A stretch of 28,381 nucleotides of DNA from a virus (Duplodnaviria; Heunggongvirae; Uroviricota; Caudoviricetes). Both the position numbers and the translations under genes were made by a program. The stretch lies in IMG/VR virus record IMGVR_UViG_2909251562_000002; one strand, written 5' to 3'. Positions within the stretch are counted from its first letter, which is position 1. Each line of letters starts with the position of its first letter. Shown one piece after another: positions 1-19,418 of this stretch. A model generated the notes under the pieces. The model ran no database searches, was not told the DNA's origin, and saw nothing but the letters and a program-made list of their open reading frames with translations.

Positions 1-906
1 CTATATTTCCAGACATCTGTTATCACTTAACCCATTACAAGCCCGCTGCCGCAGATATTCCCGTGGCGAGCGATAACCCAGCGCACTATGCGGATGCCAT
101 TCGTTATAATGCTCGAACGCCTCTGCAAGGTTCTTTGCTGCCGTTAACCCGTCTGGTTTGGGCATGATACTGATGTAGTCACGCTTTATCGTTTTCACGA
201 AGCTCTCTGCTATTCCGTTACTCTCCGGACTCCGCATCGCCGTGTTCTTCGGTTCAAGTCCCAACATCCGGGCGAACTGGCGTGTTTCATTAGCCCGGTA
301 GCATGAACCATTATCCGTCAGCCACTCCACTGGAGACGACGGAAGATCGTTGCCGAAGCGGCGTTCCACCGCTCCCAGCATGACGTCCTGTACTGTTTCA
401 CTGTTGAAGTCGCCGGTAGTCACCGCCCAGTGCAGTGCCTCACGATCACAGCAGTCCAGCGCGAACGTGACACGCAGTCTCTCTCCGTTATCACAGCAGA
501 ACTCGAACCCGTCAGAGCACCATCGCTGATTGCTTTCTTTCACGGCCACTCTGCCTGTATGTGCCCGTTTCGATGGCGGTACAGCAGGTTTTCGCTCAAG
601 CAACAGCGCATTCTGGCGCATGATCCGGTAAACACGTTTGGCATTGATCGCAGGCATACCATCAAGTTCTGCCTGTCTGCGAAGCAGCGCCCATACTCGA
701 CGATAACCATACGTGGGCAGCTCTCCGATAACATGGTGTATACGGAGAAGCACATCCGTATCATCAGTGTGACGACTGCGGCGGCCATCCATCCAGTCAT
801 CGGTTCGTCTGAGAATGACGTGCAACTGCGCACGCGACACCCGGAGACAACGGCTGACTAAGCTTACTCCCCATCCCCGGGCAATAAGGGCGCGTGCGCT
901 ATCCAC
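1..906 (-). CDS. insD: IS2 transposase OrfB (InsD), 301 aa
   Basis: ORF-track protein matches IS2 InsD from memory; overlaps insC 3' end; slippery A6G heptamer at about 907-913 on the coding strand. Confidence 0.93.
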
Positions 907-1229
907 TTTTTTGCCCGTCCATATTCAACGGCTTCTTTGAGGAGTTCATTTTCCATCGTTTTCTTGCCGAGCAGGCGCTGGAGTTCTTTAATCTGCTTCA
1001 TGGCGGCAGCAAGTTCAGAGGCAGGAACAACCTGTTCTCCGGCGGCGACAGCAGTAAGACTTCCTTCCTGGTATTGCTTACGCCAGAGAAATAACTGGCT
1101 GGCTGCTACACCATGTTGCCGGGCAACGAGGGAGACCGTCATCCCCGGTTCAAAGCTCTGCTGAACAATTGCGATCTTTTCCTGTGTGGTACGCCGTCTG
1201 CGTTTCTCCGGCCCTAAGACATCAATCAT
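864..1229 (-). CDS. insC: IS2 OrfA (InsC), 121 aa from [13 protein letters not shown]
   Basis: Internal Met of the 136-aa track ORF gives the remembered InsC N-terminus. Confidence 0.9.
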
Positions 1230-1801
1230 CTGTTCTCCAATGACTAGTCTAAAAACTAGTATTAAGACTATCACTTATTTAAGTGATATTGGTTGTCTGG
1301 AGATTCAGGGGGCCAGTCTAGTCCCATATATGCCCCAAAAAAACTCCCCAACAGATAAGTAGTTTTTTCATGGATTTATGCGTAAAATCAAGAACGGCTG
1401 GAAATCATTCAATACTCACACTATCGAAAAATTTACCAGCCAACCGCAGCACGTTCTTGCATAAGGCGTGTCTGCGGTTTTTCAACTATTCAGATACATC
1501 ACTCCCATCACATTCATTCCTCCGCATCAAAGGCATATAGGCTATATCACCTTGATATTTTTCTTTTTCAGATAAAAACTGTTATCTATGTATACTTTTA
1601 AACCCAATCCGTGTAGAGTCTCTGCATAAGATAGTTTGCAGTTGCCGCTTCAGCTTGCGCCATAAACCGCCTGATTTTTGCTGCCACCAGTTAGCATTCC
1701 TGTATACCTGAAACGACAATGTTTATCTACGAACTTTAAGAACACCCAGGATAAAAATTGTCAACTATATCATATATAACACATTACTAATTCGAGGCTA
1801 T

Positions 1802-1915
1802 ATGAACAGCATACTGATAATCACATCTCTCCTTATCATATTCAGCATTTTTAGTCATGCCCTAATAAAATTAGGGATTGGCATATCCAATAACCCAGAC
1901 AAAACCGATGTATAA
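1802..1915 (+). CDS. Candidate small hydrophobic protein, 37 aa ([37 protein letters not shown])
   Basis: Manual translation; ATG preceded by GAGG about 5 nt upstream; one predicted transmembrane helix. Below the ORF-track size cutoff. Confidence 0.25.
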
Positions 1916-1983
1916 GTCAACATATCCTGAATCAGACATACAATATCGCAATGAAAATCAATAATATTTTAAGGAATATCTTC

Positions 1984-2217
1984 ATGAAATCAAAAGACAC
2001 CCTAAAGTGGTTCCCTGCGCAGCTTCCTGAAGTAAGAATTATCCTAGGCGATGCTGTAGTGGAAGTAGCAAAACAGGGAAGACCTATCAATACCAGAACA
2101 TTGCTTGATTACATTGAAGGAAACATAAAGAAAAAATCATGGCTGGATAACAAAGAATTATTACAAACAGCGATATCAGTTCTTAAAGACAACCAAAATT
2201 TAAATGGTAAAATGTAA
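1984..2217 (+). CDS. ydfK: YdfK/YnaE-family small prophage protein, 77 aa from MKSKDTLKW
   Basis: Internal ATG with AAGGA upstream; sequence and position beside pin match the remembered ydfK/ynaE pair. Alternative upstream ATG at 1951. Confidence 0.6.
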   Translation: MKSKDTLKWFPAQLPEVRIILGDAVVEVAKQGRPINTRTLLDYIEGNIKKKSWLDNKELLQTAISVLKDNQNLNGKM

Positions 2218-2533
2218 TATAATAAACTTACTTTTTTATCATTTTTCCACTTTAACAACATTTTGCTCCACTTTTCCACGACCAAACAACTTGAAATCTG
2301 GTTAAAATAACACGCAACACTATTCTTCTTCCTTGAGTCCGCCCGGAACTCGAAAAACAAACCGAGTTAAAGCCATTTTTCACAAAATCGATTTTGGGTC
2401 TCACCAAAATTACGGGGTTGCATACGCATTCGTTTATTTTCGAACGTGTACATACAAATATGCACAAAAATAATCATAATTATTTTCTGAGATGCATTAT
2501 GATATGAACACCAATTTCGTATAGAGTCTCACT

Positions 2534-3124
2534 ATGTCTCGAATTTTTGCTTACTGTCGGATATCAACGCTGGATCAGACCACCGAAAATCAACGCCGGG
2601 AAATCGAAAGTGCAGGTTTTAAAATCAAACCTCAGCAAATAATCGAAGAACACATTAGCGGCTCAGCAGCAACCAGTGAGCGTCCTGGTTTTAACCGGTT
2701 GCTTACTCGCCTGAAATGTGGTGATCAATTGATTGTGACAAAACTGGATCGCCTTGGTTGTAATGCAATGGATATCAGGAAAACAGTGGAACAACTGACC
2801 GAAACAGGTATCAGAGTGCATTGCTTAGCATTGGGTGGCATTGACCTGACCAGTCCAACAGGAAAAATGATGATGCAAGTAATTTCAGCAGTCGCTGAAT
2901 TTGAACGAGACCTTTTACTTGAACGCATTCATTCCGGGATAGTAAGAGCCCGCGGCGCAGGGAAACGTTTTGGTCGACCACCTGTGTTAAATGAAGAACA
3001 GAAACAGGTGGTATTCGAACGAATTAAGTCAGGTGTAAGTATAAGTGCCATTGCCCGGGAATTCAAAACCTCGCGGCAAACCATTTTAAGAGCCAAAGCA
3101 AAACTTCAGACACCTGACATATAA
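2534..3124 (+). CDS. pinQ: Serine DNA invertase (Pin/Gin/Hin family), 196 aa
   Basis: N-terminal catalytic serine region (YCRISTLDQ), resolvase core and C-terminal HTH; length and context match PinQ. Confidence 0.88.
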
Positions 3125-3221: not shown

Positions 3222-3395
3222 CTACGGCAGTGCTGGCCATTCAATATCCGGTACTACTGATGTATTAACACGGTTCAGCAACACCCGATACTTTTTCCAG
3301 ACTTCCAGCAACGAAGTTTCTTCCTCCGTTGCGATTTCCAGCTCAACAACAGTCTGAACGTACCAGGAACAGCCTCCTTCAGGGCTTGAAGGATA
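3222..3395 (-). pseudogene. Orphan 3' remnant of a tail fiber assembly gene (tfa), 57 codons with no start codon
   Basis: Manual translation directly after the stf TGA, in the same frame: [57 protein letters not shown], resembling the conserved lambdoid Tfa C-terminus. Confidence 0.55.
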
Positions 3396-6300
3396 TCAAT
3401 GTTCGCTTCCTGTTAACTGCCCGACAAGTGCAACCAGTTCGCTTACCTGATTTTCCAGAGTGCTGATCCGGGTGCCTGCTGTTGCCAGATTTTTACGTAG
3501 CGTTATGTTTTCCTCTTCCAGCGCGGTAACGCGACCATCTGTTTCACGGGCGACCTGAACAAGTAACCCCGTCACGGCGGCGTAGTCAACATTCAGATAA
3601 CGTGTTTCTTCACGTAATTCATTGCCGTCAACCGTTGGTCCCTGCAACTCTTCACCGTAATGAGTAAACGATCCCACAGCTTCTGGTATCGCCTCCATTA
3701 CTTCCTGTGCAATAACGCCAGCATAAGGCATCCCGTTTTCCCTGAGCGTGTAGGTGTATCCGTTCATTTTACGGATTGCTTTCGTCGCGTCGCTGATAAC
3801 GAGAATATCGTCTTTAAGGTCGCGGTCTGATGACTGATTCAGCGTTGTGCAATTAATAGCGCCATTTACATCAAACAACTGGCCTGCTGACGTTTTTTGC
3901 GCATAAAACAGATACGCAGCAGACGTTCCAACCTCAAAAACGTTTTGTCGATCACTTGATCCCCATACTTTTGCGGCAAATGATAGTTCTGTATTACCTA
4001 AGTTCTGTAAAACAAAACGATTTCCAGTCCCTGTTTGTTTTGTAAGAGTTAAATCAACAGTTGAGTTAACCTCATCCTTGTTGATAGTGAGCGCCTGCGC
4101 TTTAGCCCCGTTAACAGCACCTGTTTTGAGTTGAACCGCGCCGTCATTACCATTTAACAGTATCTCAGCTCCGCTAAAGAAATTTTTTAGCGACAGCATC
4201 TTACTTACGCCGACTGATGAACCCAACGCCCACGCGAGAGAATTACCGGTGCTATCAAACCCACGTACAAAGCAATCCATTTTGCTATAGTCTGACGTGC
4301 TTCCAAGGACATCAATTCGCCCTCCGCCAGATTTTACCGGGTTAGATGTGGTTAATGACCTGACAGCAAGATCGGTAGATGAATTGAGATCGTCTACTGT
4401 TAGTAATTTCTTCCATTCCTGCGTCGTTCCATTTTCAATTGTTCTTCCCCAAAAACCGGAATTGCGGCCTCCGAACTGCACAGCATAATTTTTACTAAAT
4501 TGAACATGAATGCCGCCAAGAACCATAGAACCTGCCGGGCCGTTTGTACTGCCTGCAATTGGTATAAATTTATTAATGTTATCAGTATGCTGCGTGTTCC
4601 AGTCTCGTCCTGTTTTTGTAAGCAGTCCTAATGTCGTGTCGAGCGCTTCGGTTAAAGTAAGGTTTTTAAATTTAACTGCGCTACTTTCGCCAAGACTTAA
4701 GTTGTTTCGCGCATCTTCTACTGTTGTCGCACCTGTACCTCCTTGCCCAACAGCTAATGGCAACCAGCCAGTGCCATTATGACAACCCCACAAACCAGAT
4801 TTGGAAACCTGTAAGCGTGGTGCGCCTGAAGAATACGTAGAATATACGTAAGTTGTTTCTTTTCCCTCTTCAACCCTTTCTGTTGATACATCTCTCTTCC
4901 ATTCAGACCAGGTACCGCTACCTCCTTCATATATTCGTCTATAAGTAATTCCCGGATTATTATAAGGGTAGTACACCTGAACGCAGGAAGAAGCAGTGTT
5001 GGCTCTCGTTTGGAGCACTATTAAAGCGCCCGCCAGACCGATTGGGTAATTTAATTCTTCTGTTGCGTAAGCGCTCGTTGGTTGTTGATAGAAACCAGAA
5101 TATTCACCGGTAAGGGTGTTTAGGTCAGTATTAGCAAGGCCAGCTTTTTGCTCATACATTACCCGCAAGTTCGCACGTGCTTGCTCGATAGTTCTTCCAC
5201 CAGTACCGCCCTGGGCTAAACCTAACGGAGACCATTGTCCAGAAGAAGAATCATAACCCCCCCAACTCCCGTTAGTATGGATTTCAAAGAAACGATCACC
5301 AGTTGGACCATACATACGAGTTGTTGATTCATTTTGACCAAAGCGGCTTAATTCATCTCTGCGGGTATGACGTATCCATTGCGGGCCAGAACTTTGGCTG
5401 TAAATGTACGAATACAATGATTTTGTATCTGAACCAACAAATAGACCGGAATATCTTTTTGTTGACACTTCTGATCTAACTATATAACCAGAAATAAGAT
5501 TATCCCCGGCACTAGACGCTACTGATGGATAACCTTTCGCTGAGATGTAAATCCTGATAAATCCAATATAACCTGATGGCTCAACAGAGATATCAGTGCA
5601 GGTCATGGCAACTTCACCAAGACCAATATTGTTACCAACAACGGATTGTGCCTGGTTGCGATAATTAAGTGCGTCCGCTGCAGATTTCGCCGCGTTTGTT
5701 TCACTGGATTTAGCATTAGTTTCGCTGCTCTTTGCTGCTGCCTCGCTATTTTTCGCGTTGGTTTCTGATTTTTTGGCTGCTGTCGCGGAGTTTGCCGATG
5801 CAGTTTGTGAGGCCGCTGCCGCCTGTGCGCTGTTATCCGCATTCGTCTCAGACGTTTTTGCGGCCTTCGCGGAATTTCCTGCCGCCGTTGCCGAAGAGGC
5901 TGCACTACTGGCGCTCGAGGCTGCGCTCGTTTCTGATGATTTCGCTGCCTCTTTTGAGGCCGCCGCATCCCGGGCTGAGGTGGCAGCTTCTGACGCTTTC
6001 GTGGTCGCGGTGGATGCAGAAGTGGCTGCAGATTTTTGTGACGCTGCAGCATTCGTTTCTGACGTTTTCGCCGCACCGGCACTGGTAGCTGCCGCGCTTT
6101 TTGAGGACTCTGCAGCGGCAGCACTTTTTTCCGCTTCAGTGGCCTTTGTTGATGCCGTTCCTGCGCTGGAAGACGCTGACTGAGCCGACGAAGCGGCCTG
6201 TCCGGCTGACGTGCTGGCTGCGCGTGCTGAGCCTGCAGCATCAGTCGCATGGGTTGCCGCCTCACGGGCAGATGTGCCGGCATCGCCGGCTGACTTCTTC

Positions 6301-7626: not shown

Positions 7627-8304
7627 ATGTCCATCATTTTTAATGGACACTATCGTATGAAACACCGGACCTGGATCACTGAAGCTTTACGTCTTCACTT
7701 TGAAGAACATTTACCCCGGGTTGTGGCCGGGCGTCGCCTGGGTGTACCAAAATCAACAGTTTGTAGTATGTTCGTGCGCTTTCGGAGAGCTGGCCTTTCG
7801 TGGCCTTTGCCCGCAGGCATGTCGGAGCAGGAACTTGATGCCTGCCTTTACGGACAATTTTCCACGGTACCAGTCGTACGTCCTGAAAGCACCGTTATAT
7901 CCGAAGCCCCCGTGGTAAAAAAACGTCCCCGGCGGCCCAACTTCCCTTATGAGTTTAAAATCGCCTTAGTGGAGCAGTCACTGCAGCCCGGAGCCTGTGT
8001 GGCGCAGATCGCCCGGGAAAACGGAATCAACGATAACCTGCTCTTCAACTGGCGCCATCAATACCGGAAAGGTGGCCTGCTGCCTTCCGGAAAAAATATG
8101 CCGGCACTGCTTCCCGTGACGTTAACGCCGGAGCCGGATAATAAAATCCCGGCCCCCGCACAGGAACCAGAGCAGATAAATACACCGTCCGACAGTCTGT
8201 GTTGTGAGCTGGTTCTGCCGGCCGGAACTCTCAGGCTTAAAGGTAAACTGACGCCGGCGTTATTACAGACACTTATCCGCGAAATAAAAGGGAGCAGCCA
8301 CTGA
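7627..8304 (+). CDS. IS66-family accessory protein TnpA (orf1), 225 aa
   Basis: C-terminal region (KIALVEQSLQPGACVAQIARENGINDNLLFNWRHQYRKG) is typical of IS66 orf1; stop overlaps the tnpB ATG (TGATG). An internal start at 7657 is possible. Confidence 0.75.
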   Translation: MSIIFNGHYRMKHRTWITEALRLHFEEHLPRVVAGRRLGVPKSTVCSMFVRFRRAGLSWPLPAGMSEQELDACLYGQFSTVPVVRPESTVISEAPVVKKRPRRPNFPYEFKIALVEQSLQPGACVAQIARENGINDNLLFNWRHQYRKGGLLPSGKNMPALLPVTLTPEPDNKIPAPAQEPEQINTPSDSLCCELVLPAGTLRLKGKLTPALLQTLIREIKGSSH

Positions 8305-8651
8305 TGATATCTCTCCCTGCAGGTTCGCGTATCTGGCTGGTTGCAGGTATCACCGATATGCGAAATGGCTTTAACGGCCTGGCATCAAAAGTTCAGAACG
8401 TCCTGAAGGATGACCCGTTCTCCGGACACCTGTTCATCTTCCGCGGACGCCGGGGTGACCAGATAAAAGTGTTGTGGGCTGACAGTGACGGACTGTGCCT
8501 CTTCACCAAACGCCTGGAGCGGGGCCGCTTCGTCTGGCCAGTCACCCGTGACGGCAAGGTGCACCTTACTCCGGCTCAGTTATCCATGCTTCTTGAAGGT
8601 ATCAACTGGAAGCACCCGAAACGAACGGAACGCGCTGGAATCCGCATATAA
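8304..8651 (+). CDS. IS66-family TnpB (orf2), 115 aa
   Basis: Conserved IS66 orf2 sequence (MISLPAGSRIWLVAGITDMRNGFNGL...). Confidence 0.9.
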   Translation: MISLPAGSRIWLVAGITDMRNGFNGLASKVQNVLKDDPFSGHLFIFRGRRGDQIKVLWADSDGLCLFTKRLERGRFVWPVTRDGKVHLTPAQLSMLLEGINWKHPKRTERAGIRI

Positions 8652-8670
8652 CCCGTTGTAAAGTGAGGAT

Positions 8671-10242
8671 ATGGACACCTCACTTGCTCATGAGAACGCC
8701 CGCCTGCGGGCACTGTTGCAGACGCAACAGGACACCATCCGCCAGATGGCTGAATACAACCGCCTGCTCTCACAGCGGGTGGCGGCTTATGCTTCCGAAA
8801 TCAACCGGCTGAAGGCGCTGGTTGCGAAACTGCAACGTATGCAGTTCGGTAAAAGCTCAGAAAAACTTCGTGCAAAAACCGAACGGCAGATACAGGAAGC
8901 ACAGGAGCGAATCAGCGCACTTCAGGAAGAAATGGCGGAAACGCTGGGTGAGCAATATGACCCGGTACTGCCATCCGCCCTGCGCCAGTCTTCAGCCCGT
9001 AAACCGTTACCGGCCTCACTTCCCCGTGAAACCCGGGTTATCCGGCCGGAAGAGGAATGCTGTCCTGCCTGTGGTGGTGAACTCAGTTCTCTGGGATGTG
9101 ATGTGTCAGAGCAACTGGAGCTTATCAGCAGCGCCTTTAAGGTTATCGAAACACAACGTCCGAAACTGGCCTGTTGTCGGTGCGACCATATCGTGCAGGC
9201 ACCAGTACCTTCAAAACCCATTGCACGCAGTTATGCCGGAGCGGGGCTCCTGGCCCATGTCGTCACCGGAAAATATGCAGACCATCTGCCGTTATACCGC
9301 CAGTCAGAGATATACCGCCGTCAGGGTGTGGAGCTGAGCCGTGCCACACTGGGGCGCTGGACAGGTGCCGTTGCTGAACTACTGGAGCCGCTGTATGACG
9401 TCCTGCGCCAGTATGTGCTGATGCCCGGTAAAGTCCATGCTGATGATATCCCCGTCCCGGTCCAGGAGCCGGGCAGCGGTAAAACCCGGACAGCCCGGCT
9501 GTGGGTCTACGTCCGTGATGACCGTAACGCCGGTTCACAGATGCCCCCGGCGGTCTGGTTCGCGTACAGTCCGGACCGGAAAGGTATCCATCCACAAAAT
9601 CACCTGGCCGGTTACAGCGGTGTGCTTCAGGCCGATGCTTACGGTGGTTACCGGGCGTTATACGAATCCGGCAGAATAACGGAAGCCGCGTGTATGGCTC
9701 ATGCCCGGAGAAAAATCCACGATGTGCATGCAAGAGCGCCCACCGACATCACCACGGAAGCCCTGCAGCGTATCGGTGAACTGTATGCCATCGAGGCAGA
9801 GGTCCGGGGCTGTTCAGCAGAACAGCGTCTGGCGGCAAGAAAAACCAGAGCCGCGCCACTGATGCAGTCACTGTATGACTGGATACAGCAACAGATGAAA
9901 ACACTGTCGCGTCACTCAGATACGGCAAAAGCGTTCGCATACCTGCTGAAACAGTGGGATGCACTGAACGTGTACTGCAGTAATGGCTGGGTGGAAATCG
10001 ACAACAACATCGCAGAGAACGCCTTACGGGGAGTGGCCGTAGGCCGGAAAAAGTGGATGTTCGCGGGTTCCGACAGCGGTGGTGAACATGCGGCGGTGTT
10101 GTACTCGCTGATCGGCACATGCCGTCTGAACAATGTGGAGCCAGAAAAGTGGCTGCGCTACGTCATTGAACATATCCAGGACTGGCCGGCAAACCGGGTA
10201 CGCGATCTGTTGCCCTGGAAAGTTGATCTGAGCTCTCAGTAA
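8671..10242 (+). CDS. IS66-family transposase TnpC (orf3), 523 aa
   Basis: N-terminal leucine zipper, CPACGG...C...CxxC zinc motif and catalytic region; ATG with GTGAGGA upstream. Confidence 0.9.
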
Positions 10243-12550: not shown

Positions 12551-12755
12551 TCATTTTCACTTTTTTAAATCCAACGACAGACGGCTGGCATTTAAGTATT
12601 GTGAAATATTATCAAATGTAATCATCATTGATTTACAAAAGATACATTTTGCCCCGAAAGGATTCATGTCAGAAACATCAAAAGATGATGTTCTATACTG
12701 GGAACCATGACAACACGGGCATCTAAAGTGAATATGGTTTGTAATATTGTCTACC

Positions 12756-12968
12756 TCAAAGCGCCACTACATGAACAGCGGCAGGACCTTTAGGTCCGTT
12801 CTCAATACCAAATTCAACTTCCTGATTCTCAGTTAATGTTTTGAAATCGTTGCTCTGAATTGCTGAGAAATGGACAAACACATCTTTGCTGCCATCTTTC
12901 GGCGTGATGAAACCAAAACCTTTTTCAGGGTTAAACCATTTCACTAAACCAGTCATTTTGTTAGACAT
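12756..12968 (-). CDS. cspI: Cold shock protein (CspA family), 70 aa
   Basis: [34 protein letters not shown] with RNP1/RNP2 motifs; matches CspI from memory. Confidence 0.9.
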
Positions 12969-13329
12969 AATTATTACCTTTTGAAGAAATTAGCCCTTGG
13001 GCAGAATGGTCCGAAAAAAATATCAGAGAGAAAAACCAACAAGGAAATCTCAAGAGGTACAAATAATAAAATTATAACAATGACTGCTTCAGATAAATTT
13101 GTAACAAACCAGAACACCATTAACGCATGATTAACCACCCATAGCAAGGATTACTTTTGTAAAGAAAAACACAGCAATGAAAGAATAGCTTTATTTATTA
13201 ATAAAACGTGTCATTCTGATTAAGACCTTTTATCTTACCCTTAAGATTTCAGGAATTTTGGCTCATGGAAGAGTCCTTTTTATTCAAATTTTACATTCCG
13301 CGATGTAAATGTTCCGATTTAATATTACC

Positions 13330-15356: not shown

Positions 15357-15638
15357 TGAGATTGTGGTGCTTTTTGTGGGAGTCATCCACTTACGCACTT
15401 TGTTTTGCCATGCCAGCAGTTAGCTTCTGCTGTAAAACTATTCATGCAGCAAACCTGCACTTCACCACAATGGTTAGCATACTTTTCCTGATTAAGATTT
15501 TGCCAAATATGCTAGCCATTGTTTCATGTATTGGACCTCCTTACTTTTTATTAAAGAGATCCAATATTCACTACTCTGTCCGTATCTCTACTCAGGCATC
15601 AGCCTTCTTCGTTATCGTATACAGACGAGCGATGAATT

Positions 15639-15854
15639 TTAATCAGTAATGATGACATTTGCTGCTGCAGGACCTTTAGCACCACTCTCTATAGAGAAGG
15701 TAACCTTTTGACCTTCAAATAAGGTTCGATAATTATCATTCTGAATCGCAGAAAAATGCACAAACACATCTTTACTACCATCAACAGGAGAAATAAAGCC
15801 GAAACCTTTATCAGCGTTAAACCATTTTACTAAACCAGTCATTTTATTTGACAT
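15639..15854 (-). CDS. cspB: Cold shock protein CspB, 71 aa
   Basis: [34 protein letters not shown]; long AT-rich upstream leader. Confidence 0.93.
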
Positions 15855-16154
15855 TCTACATTCCTTAACTTGAGCCTTTCGGCATAAATGGTTTGCATAA
15901 CAGAAACGACTTCGTACTTAATTGGAGAGACTCAAAGAAGGAATAAGTGAATAACACCTGAAATGAGAACTGCTTTAGTAAACTACTTCGTATATCGTCT
16001 GTTCTTCAAACCGACGCAATCATTAACGCATAGTTGAACATATGAAGCAATGTTTATTTTAGACATCCAGCCATCTTCAACCCCATCAAAAAACTATAGC
16101 TTTCTTCAGGAACGTGTGTATAGTGCGCCAAGTTATCAGTATTAAGGAATTTTT

Positions 16155-17554: not shown

Positions 17555-18604
17555 TTACGCCAGTACGCCAATTGCCAGCGCGCGATCGATAAAACGAAAT
17601 ATCAGCTCCAGTTGGGAGCCATACTTATCTTCAAATGCCACTGTATCCGTATGCAGCTCGTTGTGATGCTTTCTGCACAAAGGCAACACAAAGAGATCAT
17701 GTGCTTTTGTTCCCATTCCGCCCTGCCCGTGACCAATCAGATGATGCGGATCGTCGGCTGGCATACCGCAGCAAGCACACGGCTGTGTCTTAACCCAACG
17801 TGTGTATTTCTCCTTAACCCAGCGGCGACGTTTAGGCAGCTTCATGAAAGATTCCGGAGACTCTGGATCAACGGTGATGCTTACCACCGTCTTTTCCTGT
17901 GGTGATTTTTGTTGCTGGTGGGCGTAAGGCAACGGTGCAAGATTTTTTGTGCGTTGTTTCAATATGCTGGTGGCGGTCTGCTCTCCCGGTACGATGTCGC
18001 TTTCGCGGTACACCGAGCAGATTTTTTCCGCTGGTAATCCCAGCGAACGACGCGATACAGCCTCAGGTAGTGCATCCACCACCTGATTGCAGACCGCCCA
18101 CCAGGATAATTCAGCCAAAGATAATTCCCGCTCCTGCGTACCGCTTATTGCGTGACGGATGACGTCAATCACCCATGCTGTCAGATTTTGTTGAGCAAGC
18201 AGCTCCAGTGATTCCGATGTCTGGTCACGCAGTTGGTTGTCGCAGTGCCAGCACAACACCATTGCGCCGGTACCATAACGGTGAATGACTGTTTCAGTGT
18301 GATGGTAATCGCCATTAGGCCACTGGCAGGATGTAACATGACGTAATAGCCAGTCGGACAATGCGCCAACGCCGCCAGCAGCACGAATCACCCGTTCGTT
18401 ACTAAAAAACGGCAGCAATGTTTTGTCTTCCGCCATCGGCTGGCGAACGGCAGGAACGACTCCGGATGGCAGATTACGCATGCTTTTTGGTTCCGGTTCC
18501 ACCAGCACTCGAGGATTATGAAATATCTGTATGGATTCACGGCCCGGCTTAAGGACCACCAGCCCAAGCTCAGGCACCAGAACAGGTCTAAGTAATACCC
18601 GCAC
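17555..18604 (-). CDS. ydfU: YdfU-like protein with a C-terminal NinG/Rap-like Cys/His nuclease motif, about 349 aa from a GTG start
   Basis: C-terminal CACCG...HHLIGHGQGG...CRKHHNELH; start placed at GTG 18602-18604, one nt after the stop of the upstream ORF; the track alternative extends to 18643. Confidence 0.7.
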   Translation of the reverse strand: MRVLLRPVLVPELGLVVLKPGRESIQIFHNPRVLVEPEPKSMRNLPSGVVPAVRQPMAEDKTLLPFFSNERVIRAAGGVGALSDWLLRHVTSCQWPNGDYHHTETVIHRYGTGAMVLCWHCDNQLRDQTSESLELLAQQNLTAWVIDVIRHAISGTQERELSLAELSWWAVCNQVVDALPEAVSRRSLGLPAEKICSVYRESDIVPGEQTATSILKQRTKNLAPLPYAHQQQKSPQEKTVVSITVDPESPESFMKLPKRRRWVKEKYTRWVKTQPCACCGMPADDPHHLIGHGQGGMGTKAHDLFVLPLCRKHHNELHTDTVAFEDKYGSQLELIFRFIDRALAIGVLA

Positions 18605-18605
18605 G

Positions 18606-18884
18606 TTACCTCCAGATCCGTTGCTGGAAAGTGCGGGACGCACGTGGTGGGCGTTCGGAATAAGGCAGCCTGACAGAGATTATCCAGTGCCGATAGTCGA
18701 GACTGAGAGCTTTCTTAACCTCGAACCCGCGCCTGCGGTAAGAATGAATCAGCCATTCGGCCTGTTCTGCAGTGCATGGAGGGTGCTGGAACCATTCAGA
18801 CTTGAATGCGTGAGAATACCGCCCGTGCGTGCAGGCAAGAACGGGCGAATTATCAGAATTGTAATATTTTGCGTTGCGTGCCAT
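18606..18884 (-). CDS. Hypothetical protein, 92 aa, abutting the ydfU-like gene
   Basis: ORF track; identity not recognised; it or the next ORF may correspond to rem. Confidence 0.4.
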   Translation of the reverse strand: MARNAKYYNSDNSPVLACTHGRYSHAFKSEWFQHPPCTAEQAEWLIHSYRRRGFEVKKALSLDYRHWIISVRLPYSERPPRASRTFQQRIWR

Positions 18885-18950
18885 CGGTTTTCTCCGGTGG
18901 CACGGTGTTACTCAGCGGGAGTTCAGCCCCGCGCAAGATTGTAGATGAGT

Positions 18951-19202
18951 TTATTCTCCTGAAAAAGCAGAAAAGCCAGCTTTTATTCCGATCTCTTTCA
19001 ATGCCTGTAATGAAGTGACAAACTCACCTTCGCGCAAGATAAATCCGTCCGTGACCCGAGCATCCACAAAATTAATTAACGCAGCCCCATTCTTTCGCAA
19101 ACACATAATGCGGTAATGACTAACAAGATTTCCATTTTCAACGCACACAGCATAGAGGCCATCTTCACAAAAAATTTTACGCAGTTCTTCGATGTTCATC
19201 AT
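18951..19202 (-). CDS. Hypothetical small protein, 83 aa (possibly Rem-like)
   Basis: ORF track; length and position between ydfU and hokD match K-12 rem, but the sequence is not confirmed from memory. Confidence 0.4.
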   Translation of the reverse strand: MMNIEELRKIFCEDGLYAVCVENGNLVSHYRIMCLRKNGAALINFVDARVTDGFILREGEFVTSLQALKEIGIKAGFSAFSGE

Positions 19203-19321
19203 CAGAATCCTTCCGGATAATTAGCTCTCCCCTTTAAGGGACCATCCCTCTTATCCCTGCGCGCTACTTAAGTATTTTTGATTCTATTCCGGCACCGTCC
19301 AGAACTTCAAACGCGTTGAAA

Positions 19322-19350
19322 ATAAAAACAAAAACCCGCCGAAGCGGGTT
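19322..19350 (-). terminator. Intrinsic terminator of the relB-relE-hokD operon
   Basis: Hairpin CCCGC-CGAA-GCGGG followed by a T-run on the minus strand. Confidence 0.65.
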
Positions 19351-19418
19351 AAGTGCGGGTGCGTTGAGGATGCCTGCCACATCAGAGGTGGCGAGGGATT
19401 TCTCCCCCGCCGGGTCTC

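Follow-up and report, generated by a model that had tools for sequence, protein, structure and literature searches.

Between an IS2 element and a ydfK-like gene, the window (the whole 28,381-nt stretch of Caudoviricetes DNA that was analyzed, IMG/VR record IMGVR_UViG_2909251562_000002) carries a 37-codon open reading frame (ORF), which raises the question of whether this ORF is a gene and, if so, what its product does. The initial annotation described it as an unannotated hydrophobic ORF with a strong ribosome-binding site, of a kind that in prophages often encodes a toxin or a regulator and is usually missed by annotation. The ORF is present as described, with an ATG at 1802, a TAA at 1913-1915 and a product of 37 residues, and this ATG is the earliest start available downstream of the preceding in-frame stop. 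Its position between the two neighbors also stands: IS2 occupies positions 1 to ~1321 on the minus strand, and ydfK follows at 1984-2217 (Table 1). Counted from the end of a GAGG, the ATG starts at the fifth base, as stated. In contrast, the ribosome-binding site is ordinary or moderate rather than strong, because the predicted Shine-Dalgarno:anti-Shine-Dalgarno duplex has an energy of -5.9 kcal/mol, compared with -13.5 kcal/mol for a consensus site and -6.1 kcal/mol for ydfK, which has a site of its own (AAGGAA). Thus, the GAGG-N4-ATG arrangement was read correctly, whereas its strength was overstated.

Table 1 Positions, strands and supporting evidence of the features at the ynfT locus (window coordinates).
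Feature	Position	Strand	Basis
IS2, truncated at the window start; IS3-like element with an IS2 family transposase	1..1321	-	annotation
Stable hairpin followed by TTTTT on the plus strand, terminator-like	1446..1484	+	folding
Candidate sigma-70 promoter TTCAGA-18-TATACT, ~200 nt upstream of ynfT	1567..1596	+	9/12 consensus match
Conserved upstream block (GATAAAAA...TGTCAA...ATA-rich), start of the E. coli/Salmonella cassette homology	1752..1801	+	BLAST alignment
Shine-Dalgarno core GAGG, 4 nt (CTAT) before the ATG	1794..1797	+	sequence; conserved spacing
ynfT CDS, 37 codons + stop, YnaM/YnfT family small membrane protein	1802..1915	+	ORF, RefSeq annotation and K-12 identity
ydfK, 77 aa, constant downstream partner, 68 nt past the ynfT stop	1984..2217	+	annotation

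Judged from sequence identity, the ORF is almost certainly ynfT, the YnaM/YnfT small-protein gene carried by prophage Qin. All 114 bases are identical to those of ynfT (b4748) in the cryptic prophage Qin of E. coli K-12 MG1655 (NC_000913.3, 1632890-1633003), and the position upstream of ydfK and pinQ is shared as well, which makes the two the same gene. The window differs from K-12 Qin in the presence of IS2, which K-12 lacks, and in five single-base differences within the 470 nt upstream of ynfT. This IS2 copy lies ~480 nt upstream of ynfT, just within the left end of the prophage (K-12 Qin aligns with the window from position 1322 onward), and is a neighbor rather than a part of the gene. 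A second K-12 gene, ynaM (b4744) of the prophage Rac, encodes the same 37-aa protein and has three nucleotide differences from ynfT, all of them synonymous; the ynaM-ynaE-pinR order parallels that of the ynfT locus, but ynaM is located in Rac, beside ttcC/uspF. When window positions 1322-2530 were compared by megablast with all complete E. coli genomes, the matching records were found to label the ORF "ynfT: YnaM/YnfT family protein", and the record that matches at 100% has a ynfT CDS at exactly the coordinates of the window ORF (WP_120795384.1). A 251-nt query centered on the ORF is present in 2806 of 5426 complete E. coli genomes, where it is routinely annotated. At the protein level, the product matches Pfam PF23676 ("YnaM") over residues 1-37 of 37 (96.2 bits, cut-off 27), NCBIfam NF041477 (63.9 bits, cut-off 35) and, above threshold, PHROG 35882 of unknown function (72.7 bits), and an exact-sequence look-up returns UniProt YNAM_ECOLI ("Protein YnaM"). 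The profile cut-offs, the identity to K-12 and the location directly upstream of ydfK all place the product in the YnaM/YnfT family. The gene is, therefore, neither unannotated nor generally overlooked: RefSeq annotates ynfT in about half of the complete E. coli genomes, and by 2018 it already had a name, an annotation and demonstrated expression.

Evidence for expression comes from the K-12 genes. VanOrsdel et al. (2018) tagged 80 short ORFs with SPA at their K-12 chromosomal loci, and immunoblots revealed 36 of the products (PMC6001520). Table 1 of that study lists "ynaM, ynaE/ttcC, 37 aa" and "ynfQ, ydfJ/ydfK, 1632890-1633003, 37 aa", both with the sequence of the window peptide; the locus there named ynfQ is ynfT in the current RefSeq annotation. 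Both twin loci were positive in a tetracycline Ribo-seq screen, and the YnfT protein was produced from its chromosomal locus in LB-grown K-12 cells (PMC6001520). The comparison with small-protein catalogs and Ribo-seq that the initial annotation proposed thus supports the ORF. Weaver et al. reported higher levels of YnaM-SPA than of most newly found small proteins, and no start-codon ribosome peak for YnaM under retapamulin or Onc112 (bioRxiv 10.1101/511675). Between positions -52 and +22 around the ATG, the Qin gene and its Rac twin do not differ in a single base. A footprint over the ynfT/ynaM start therefore has no unique mapping position, and we think, from this identity, that the missing YnaM peak is an artifact of read multi-mapping. 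Standard Ribo-seq mapping cannot score ynfT in K-12, and an apparent lack of ribosome occupancy would consequently be a false refutation. A 2024 review of the E. coli y-ome lists ynfT among the uncharacterized Qin genes (PMC11551758), and a literature search for YnfT/YnaM did not find a functional study.

The simplest alternative to a functional gene is a chance ORF without function in AT-rich intergenic DNA. This alternative was evaluated with 2000 composition-preserving shuffles of the 662-nt spacer between IS2 and ydfK. An ATG-initiated ORF of at least 37 codons is present in 69% of the shuffles, which means that the length of the ORF by itself is little evidence, and AT-rich DNA favors the Ile, Leu and Phe codons of a hydrophobic peptide. 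However, only 5.8% of the shuffles contain such an ORF with a Shine-Dalgarno core, and none of the 2000 combines this length and core with a stretch of transmembrane-grade hydrophobicity.

The pattern of nucleotide substitution leads to the same result. A DNA search identified the ynfT region in 13 phage records, which include the Escherichia temperate phages mEp460_ev081, 2H10, Turner, Kati, HannyBb, Tritos and PhiR isolates; in a tblastn search against phages, the alignment covers only the polar tail of YnfT, as the hydrophobic part is masked as low complexity. Two of the records, Salmonella phage 118970_sal3 (KU927493.2, 77 kb) and PhiR42_1 (PV340562.1), have two ynfT-region matches each. 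The copy in Salmonella phage 118970_sal3 shares 79% DNA identity with ynfT over the ORF and also has 37 codons. The GAGG-N4-ATG arrangement is kept in this phage and in phage 2H10, and the sequence further upstream has diverged. By the Nei-Gojobori method, ynfT and the 118970_sal3 copy are separated by 15.0 synonymous and 8.0 non-synonymous differences (dS 1.27, dN 0.099, dN/dS 0.078), and 15 of the 23 differences fall in third codon positions (binomial p = 0.0017). The ratio of synonymous to non-synonymous differences is 6:1 relative to phage 2H10 and 3:0 relative to both Rac and E. ruysiae. The value obtained for ydfK by the same method, 0.079, matches that of ynfT. Between the E. coli and Salmonella consensus sequences, the 12-residue tail (residues 25-36) is invariant, with only rare single variants, and the substitutions are confined to residues 2-24 and residue 37. 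These comparisons indicate that purifying selection acts on the amino-acid sequence of YnfT, chiefly on its tail, as far as can be judged from the aligned copies. A chance ORF is thereby ruled out; together with the detection of the K-12 protein (PMC6001520), this selection leaves that reading, to which we assign practically no probability, already refuted. The conservation of the frame, which the initial annotation had named as a check, extends to length, frame and start context in the Salmonella phage. No selection analysis of YnaM/YnfT was found in the literature searched, and the present one independently supports selection on ynfT as a peptide. The invariant tail is the indicated place to mutate.

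The family has a very narrow distribution. Among 1.84 billion cluster representatives, an exhaustive phmmer search returned only four YnfT-like sequences, all of which are at least 81% identical, and a degenerate-DNA scan for the tail motif, with one genome per species, found it only in Escherichia and Shigella, besides contigs of three metagenome-assembled genomes (MAGs). These MAGs, assigned to Draconibacterium orientale, a Caldithrix sp. and an Alistipes sp., might be taken to indicate a wide host range. This possibility was rejected: the contigs contain 1-kb stretches that are 99.4-99.7% identical to ynfT-ydfK of E. coli Qin, a degree of identity that marks them as contamination or mis-binning. 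By these searches, the YnaM/YnfT family is restricted to Escherichia/Shigella and Salmonella. Because the family is so narrow, its conservation rests on few independent lineages.

The single transmembrane helix and short polar tail that had been claimed for the product are supported by both hydropathy and structure prediction. Residues 4-22 form a hydrophobic core (mean Kyte-Doolittle value, 2.52; Hessa-scale sum, unweighted, -1.8 kcal/mol). The AlphaFold2 model consists of a single helix that spans residues 2-30 (mean pLDDT of 88.6), with lower confidence in the tail. YnfT is, therefore, predicted to be a membrane-type single-helix peptide.

The genomic setting provides further insight. In the window, ynfT is followed by ydfK, pinQ and the tail-fiber genes. 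The ydfK gene lies directly after ynfT in every copy examined, which comprises those of Qin, Rac (ynaM-ynaE), the lambdoid phages and the Salmonella phage. In Qin, Rac, Turner and 2H10, the pair is followed by a pin invertase gene and side tail-fiber genes, a lambdoid layout that was verified in phages Turner and 2H10. In the Salmonella phage, the pair instead lies beside a baseplate-type tail module without an invertase. In all cases, the pair is oriented away from the late tail genes and is located on the side of the integrase/attachment end. The homology between the E. coli and Salmonella copies begins ~50 nt upstream of the ATG, near window position 1752, and the next 300 nt upstream cannot be aligned. 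From this arrangement, we infer that ynfT and ydfK constitute a portable two-gene accessory cassette, or moron. A moron fits the expression seen in K-12, where both Qin and Rac are cryptic. The pair crosses tail-module types and genera as one cassette, which argues for joint study of the two proteins.

Further observations concern other parts of the window prophage. The pinQ invertase gene (2534-3124) is intact and the tail-fiber assembly pseudogene (3222-3347) is a 126-nt remnant; the invertible tail-fiber segment seems to have decayed. An IS66-family element, ISCro1 (7627-10242), interrupts the region past the lom-like gene. Strain 67-1 matches positions 1322-2530 at 100% but is not the source of the window: base 5257 is the first to differ, and the genes downstream of ydfU (window ~18600-19650) are shifted by 1331 nt. 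This shift is probably due to a copy of IS1414 (IS256-like) that is present in strain 67-1 and missing from the window.

A consensus scan and the alignment revealed no canonical promoter beside the ynfT ORF. The conserved block at 1752-1801 may hold a proximal promoter, and it contains no canonical -35/-10 pair. Further upstream, a terminator-like hairpin (1446-1484) lies ~310 nt from ynfT and is conserved in Rac and Qin, with a folding energy of -13.5 kcal/mol on the plus strand (z = -2.1) and -18.7 kcal/mol on the minus strand (z = -3.5). This hairpin would shield ynfT from read-through that originates in IS2 or the upstream flank. Because it would stop incoming transcription, the ynfT promoter is expected at ~1490-1800, and TTCAGA-18-TATACT (1567-1596) is the only consensus-like candidate between the hairpin and the ORF. 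The region contains seven promoter-like sites, which is no excess over the 5.5 ± 2.3 found in shuffles. The hairpin also matches the 3' stem-loop of the Rfam family CssrB, a Shigella small RNA, almost perfectly. The whole match, however, scores only 25.3 bits against a gathering score of 76, and the similarity probably reflects a shared terminator module and not a CssrB gene. None of the published gSELEX promoter hexamers of ydfK occurs in the window, and those of ynaE lie outside the region common to Rac and the window. In vitro, RNA polymerase holoenzyme binds the ydfI-ydfK and ynaE-uspF spacers (PMC3946193).

The spacer that contains ynfT, 68 nt upstream of ydfK, is termed the ydfK 5' leader in the literature. 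Prematurely ended short transcripts of the ydfK and ynaE leaders have been described and proposed to be riboswitch-like (Raghavan 2011, as relayed in PMC5089854 and PMC4152368), and RNA fragments of these leaders co-immunoprecipitate with Hfq (PMC4152368). These transcripts, as well as the constant adjacency of ynfT and ydfK, would be in line with a leader peptide or regulatory upstream ORF, in which the act of translating ynfT, and not the peptide, would control the termination or translation of the cold-shock gene ydfK. However, a pure leader ORF is disfavored by the purifying selection described above: its amino-acid sequence would not be expected to be held at a dN/dS of 0.078 with an invariant tail. 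In addition, the protein is stable enough to be detected by immunoblot (PMC6001520), ydfK is equipped for its own initiation by AAGGAA, no terminator-like site or hairpin lies between the two genes in a scan of 1300-2600, and the RNA of the ORF and spacer (1760-1995) is not unusually structured relative to shuffles (z = -0.64). A role as a leader only is accordingly a slim prospect, the slimmest of the readings that assign ynfT a function. The leader and functional-peptide readings are compatible with each other, and since the ynfT ORF falls within the ydfK leader spacer, the reported leader RNAs may be ynfT message. More broadly, these RNAs could be ynfT and ynaM messages that serve both as mRNA and as Hfq-bound leader, with YnfT and YdfK acting jointly as a prophage-borne two-protein module that adapts the membrane to cold or to long-term stationary phase; we consider this combination rather doubtful. 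If it were true, the locus would be a small-membrane-protein mRNA that doubles as the Hfq-bound regulatory leader of the cold-induced ydfK gene. Cold shock and long-term stationary phase are both reported to induce ydfK; in the latter, ydfK and ynaE are strongly upregulated alongside csp genes (stationary phase: PMC7406224).

The Rfam scan of the window also returned, above the gathering score, cspA-type thermoregulator leaders at 12729-13113 and 15623-16015, both minus-strand elements that precede the genes cspI and cspB, as well as the DicF small RNA at 22184-22235 on the plus strand. With these csp leaders and ydfK, ynfQ, ynfR and cspF, the window prophage is rich in cold-shock genes.

The suggestion that such peptides are often toxins corresponds to a specific alternative, in which YnfT would be the toxin of a type I toxin-antitoxin pair that damages or depolarizes the inner membrane and is normally silenced by an antisense or overlapping small RNA. 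Like Hok/Gef, Ldr, TisB, IbsC (of the Ibs peptides) and PepG1, YnfT is a short peptide with a single hydrophobic helix and is encoded in a prophage, as these toxins often are; hokD is located in the same prophage as the window ynfT. A weak NCBIfam similarity to PepG1 (NF041589, E = 0.055) amounts to 13.1 bits against a cut-off of 70, which places YnfT outside that family, and no Pfam family other than PF23676 is matched. A promoter-like site on the minus strand (1993-1966) could drive an antisense transcript into the 3' end of ynfT, but, as noted, such sites are not in excess over shuffles, and the Rfam scan found no antitoxin or small RNA family on or opposite the ynfT ORF. The binding of leader fragments by Hfq would agree with regulation by a small RNA, but the unremarkable fold of the ynfT mRNA offers no structure able to sequester its Shine-Dalgarno sequence. 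The tail of YnfT is acidic to neutral, unlike the basic or aromatic tails that are common in pore-forming toxins, and PADLOC returned no match. Translation of type I toxins is normally repressed. In contrast, the tagged protein is comparatively abundant in normally growing cells, with no reported harm (bioRxiv 10.1101/511675, PMC6001520). Considering these differences, a type I toxin is very unlikely, although marginally less so than a mere leader.

As a second membrane-directed alternative, YnfT could be a superinfection-exclusion or anti-phage peptide, a specific version of the moron idea in which it would act against incoming phages by blocking the entry of their DNA or the function of their receptor. 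The accessory region beside tail-fiber and lom-like genes, in which ynfT is located, is where genes for lysogenic conversion and exclusion reside in lambdoid phages, and functional temperate phages carry ynfT. Expression from resident prophages (PMC6001520) also agrees with exclusion. However, ynfT matches none of the PADLOC defense models, PHROG 35882 has no assigned function, no phenotype has been reported, and the cold-shock and stationary-phase regulation of ydfK points elsewhere (PMC7406224). This reading is therefore unlikely, although less so than a toxin.

The best explanation overall, and one that we consider very probable, is that the ORF is ynfT, a selected peptide and the first gene of a ynfT-ydfK cassette, with a putative role as a partner of a membrane protein. 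That the YnfT peptide itself is the functional product is judged nearly as probable. In the proposed mechanism, the cassette would be active in the lysogen, from the resident prophage, and not in lytic growth, and ynfT would probably be co-transcribed with ydfK. YnfT is predicted to enter the inner membrane as one helix (residues ~3-27), which would leave a polar tail of 9-13 residues. There, by analogy to other bacterial small membrane proteins, it may bind and tune a larger membrane-associated partner; the invariant tail would make the specific contact with this partner, and no membrane damage would be involved. The small inner-membrane regulatory proteins AcrZ, MgrB, MgtS, KdpF and CydX represent the class that YnfT may work like. 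Like them, YnfT has fewer than 50 residues, is predicted to form one helix and was detected by tagging on the chromosome, but it differs in that it has no sequence relationship to them, is of prophage origin and has a very narrow range; the likeness is one of class only. Modulation of a partner is put forward as the most likely of the roles considered, but as a tentative mechanism, drawn by analogy, that we hold to be possible and less likely than not.

Finally, several observations concern ydfK itself. A Pfam search with YdfK (E ≤ 1) returned no family, and its only NCBIfam similarity is a weak one to YcgZ, a regulatory protein (15.9 bits, cut-off 80, E = 0.012). This similarity may serve as a lead for a connector-type role, and as nothing more. 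In K-12, Qin ydfK and Rac ynaE differ at codon 51 (A versus C, K51 versus T51; window 2134-2136, K-12 position 1633223). Two resequencing papers call this ydfK site a mutation in phage-exposed E. coli (PMC12844343, Table 1; PMC11297538, Table 2). From the comparison of the two genes, these reported calls most likely reflect cross-mapping or gene conversion between the prophage paralogs.
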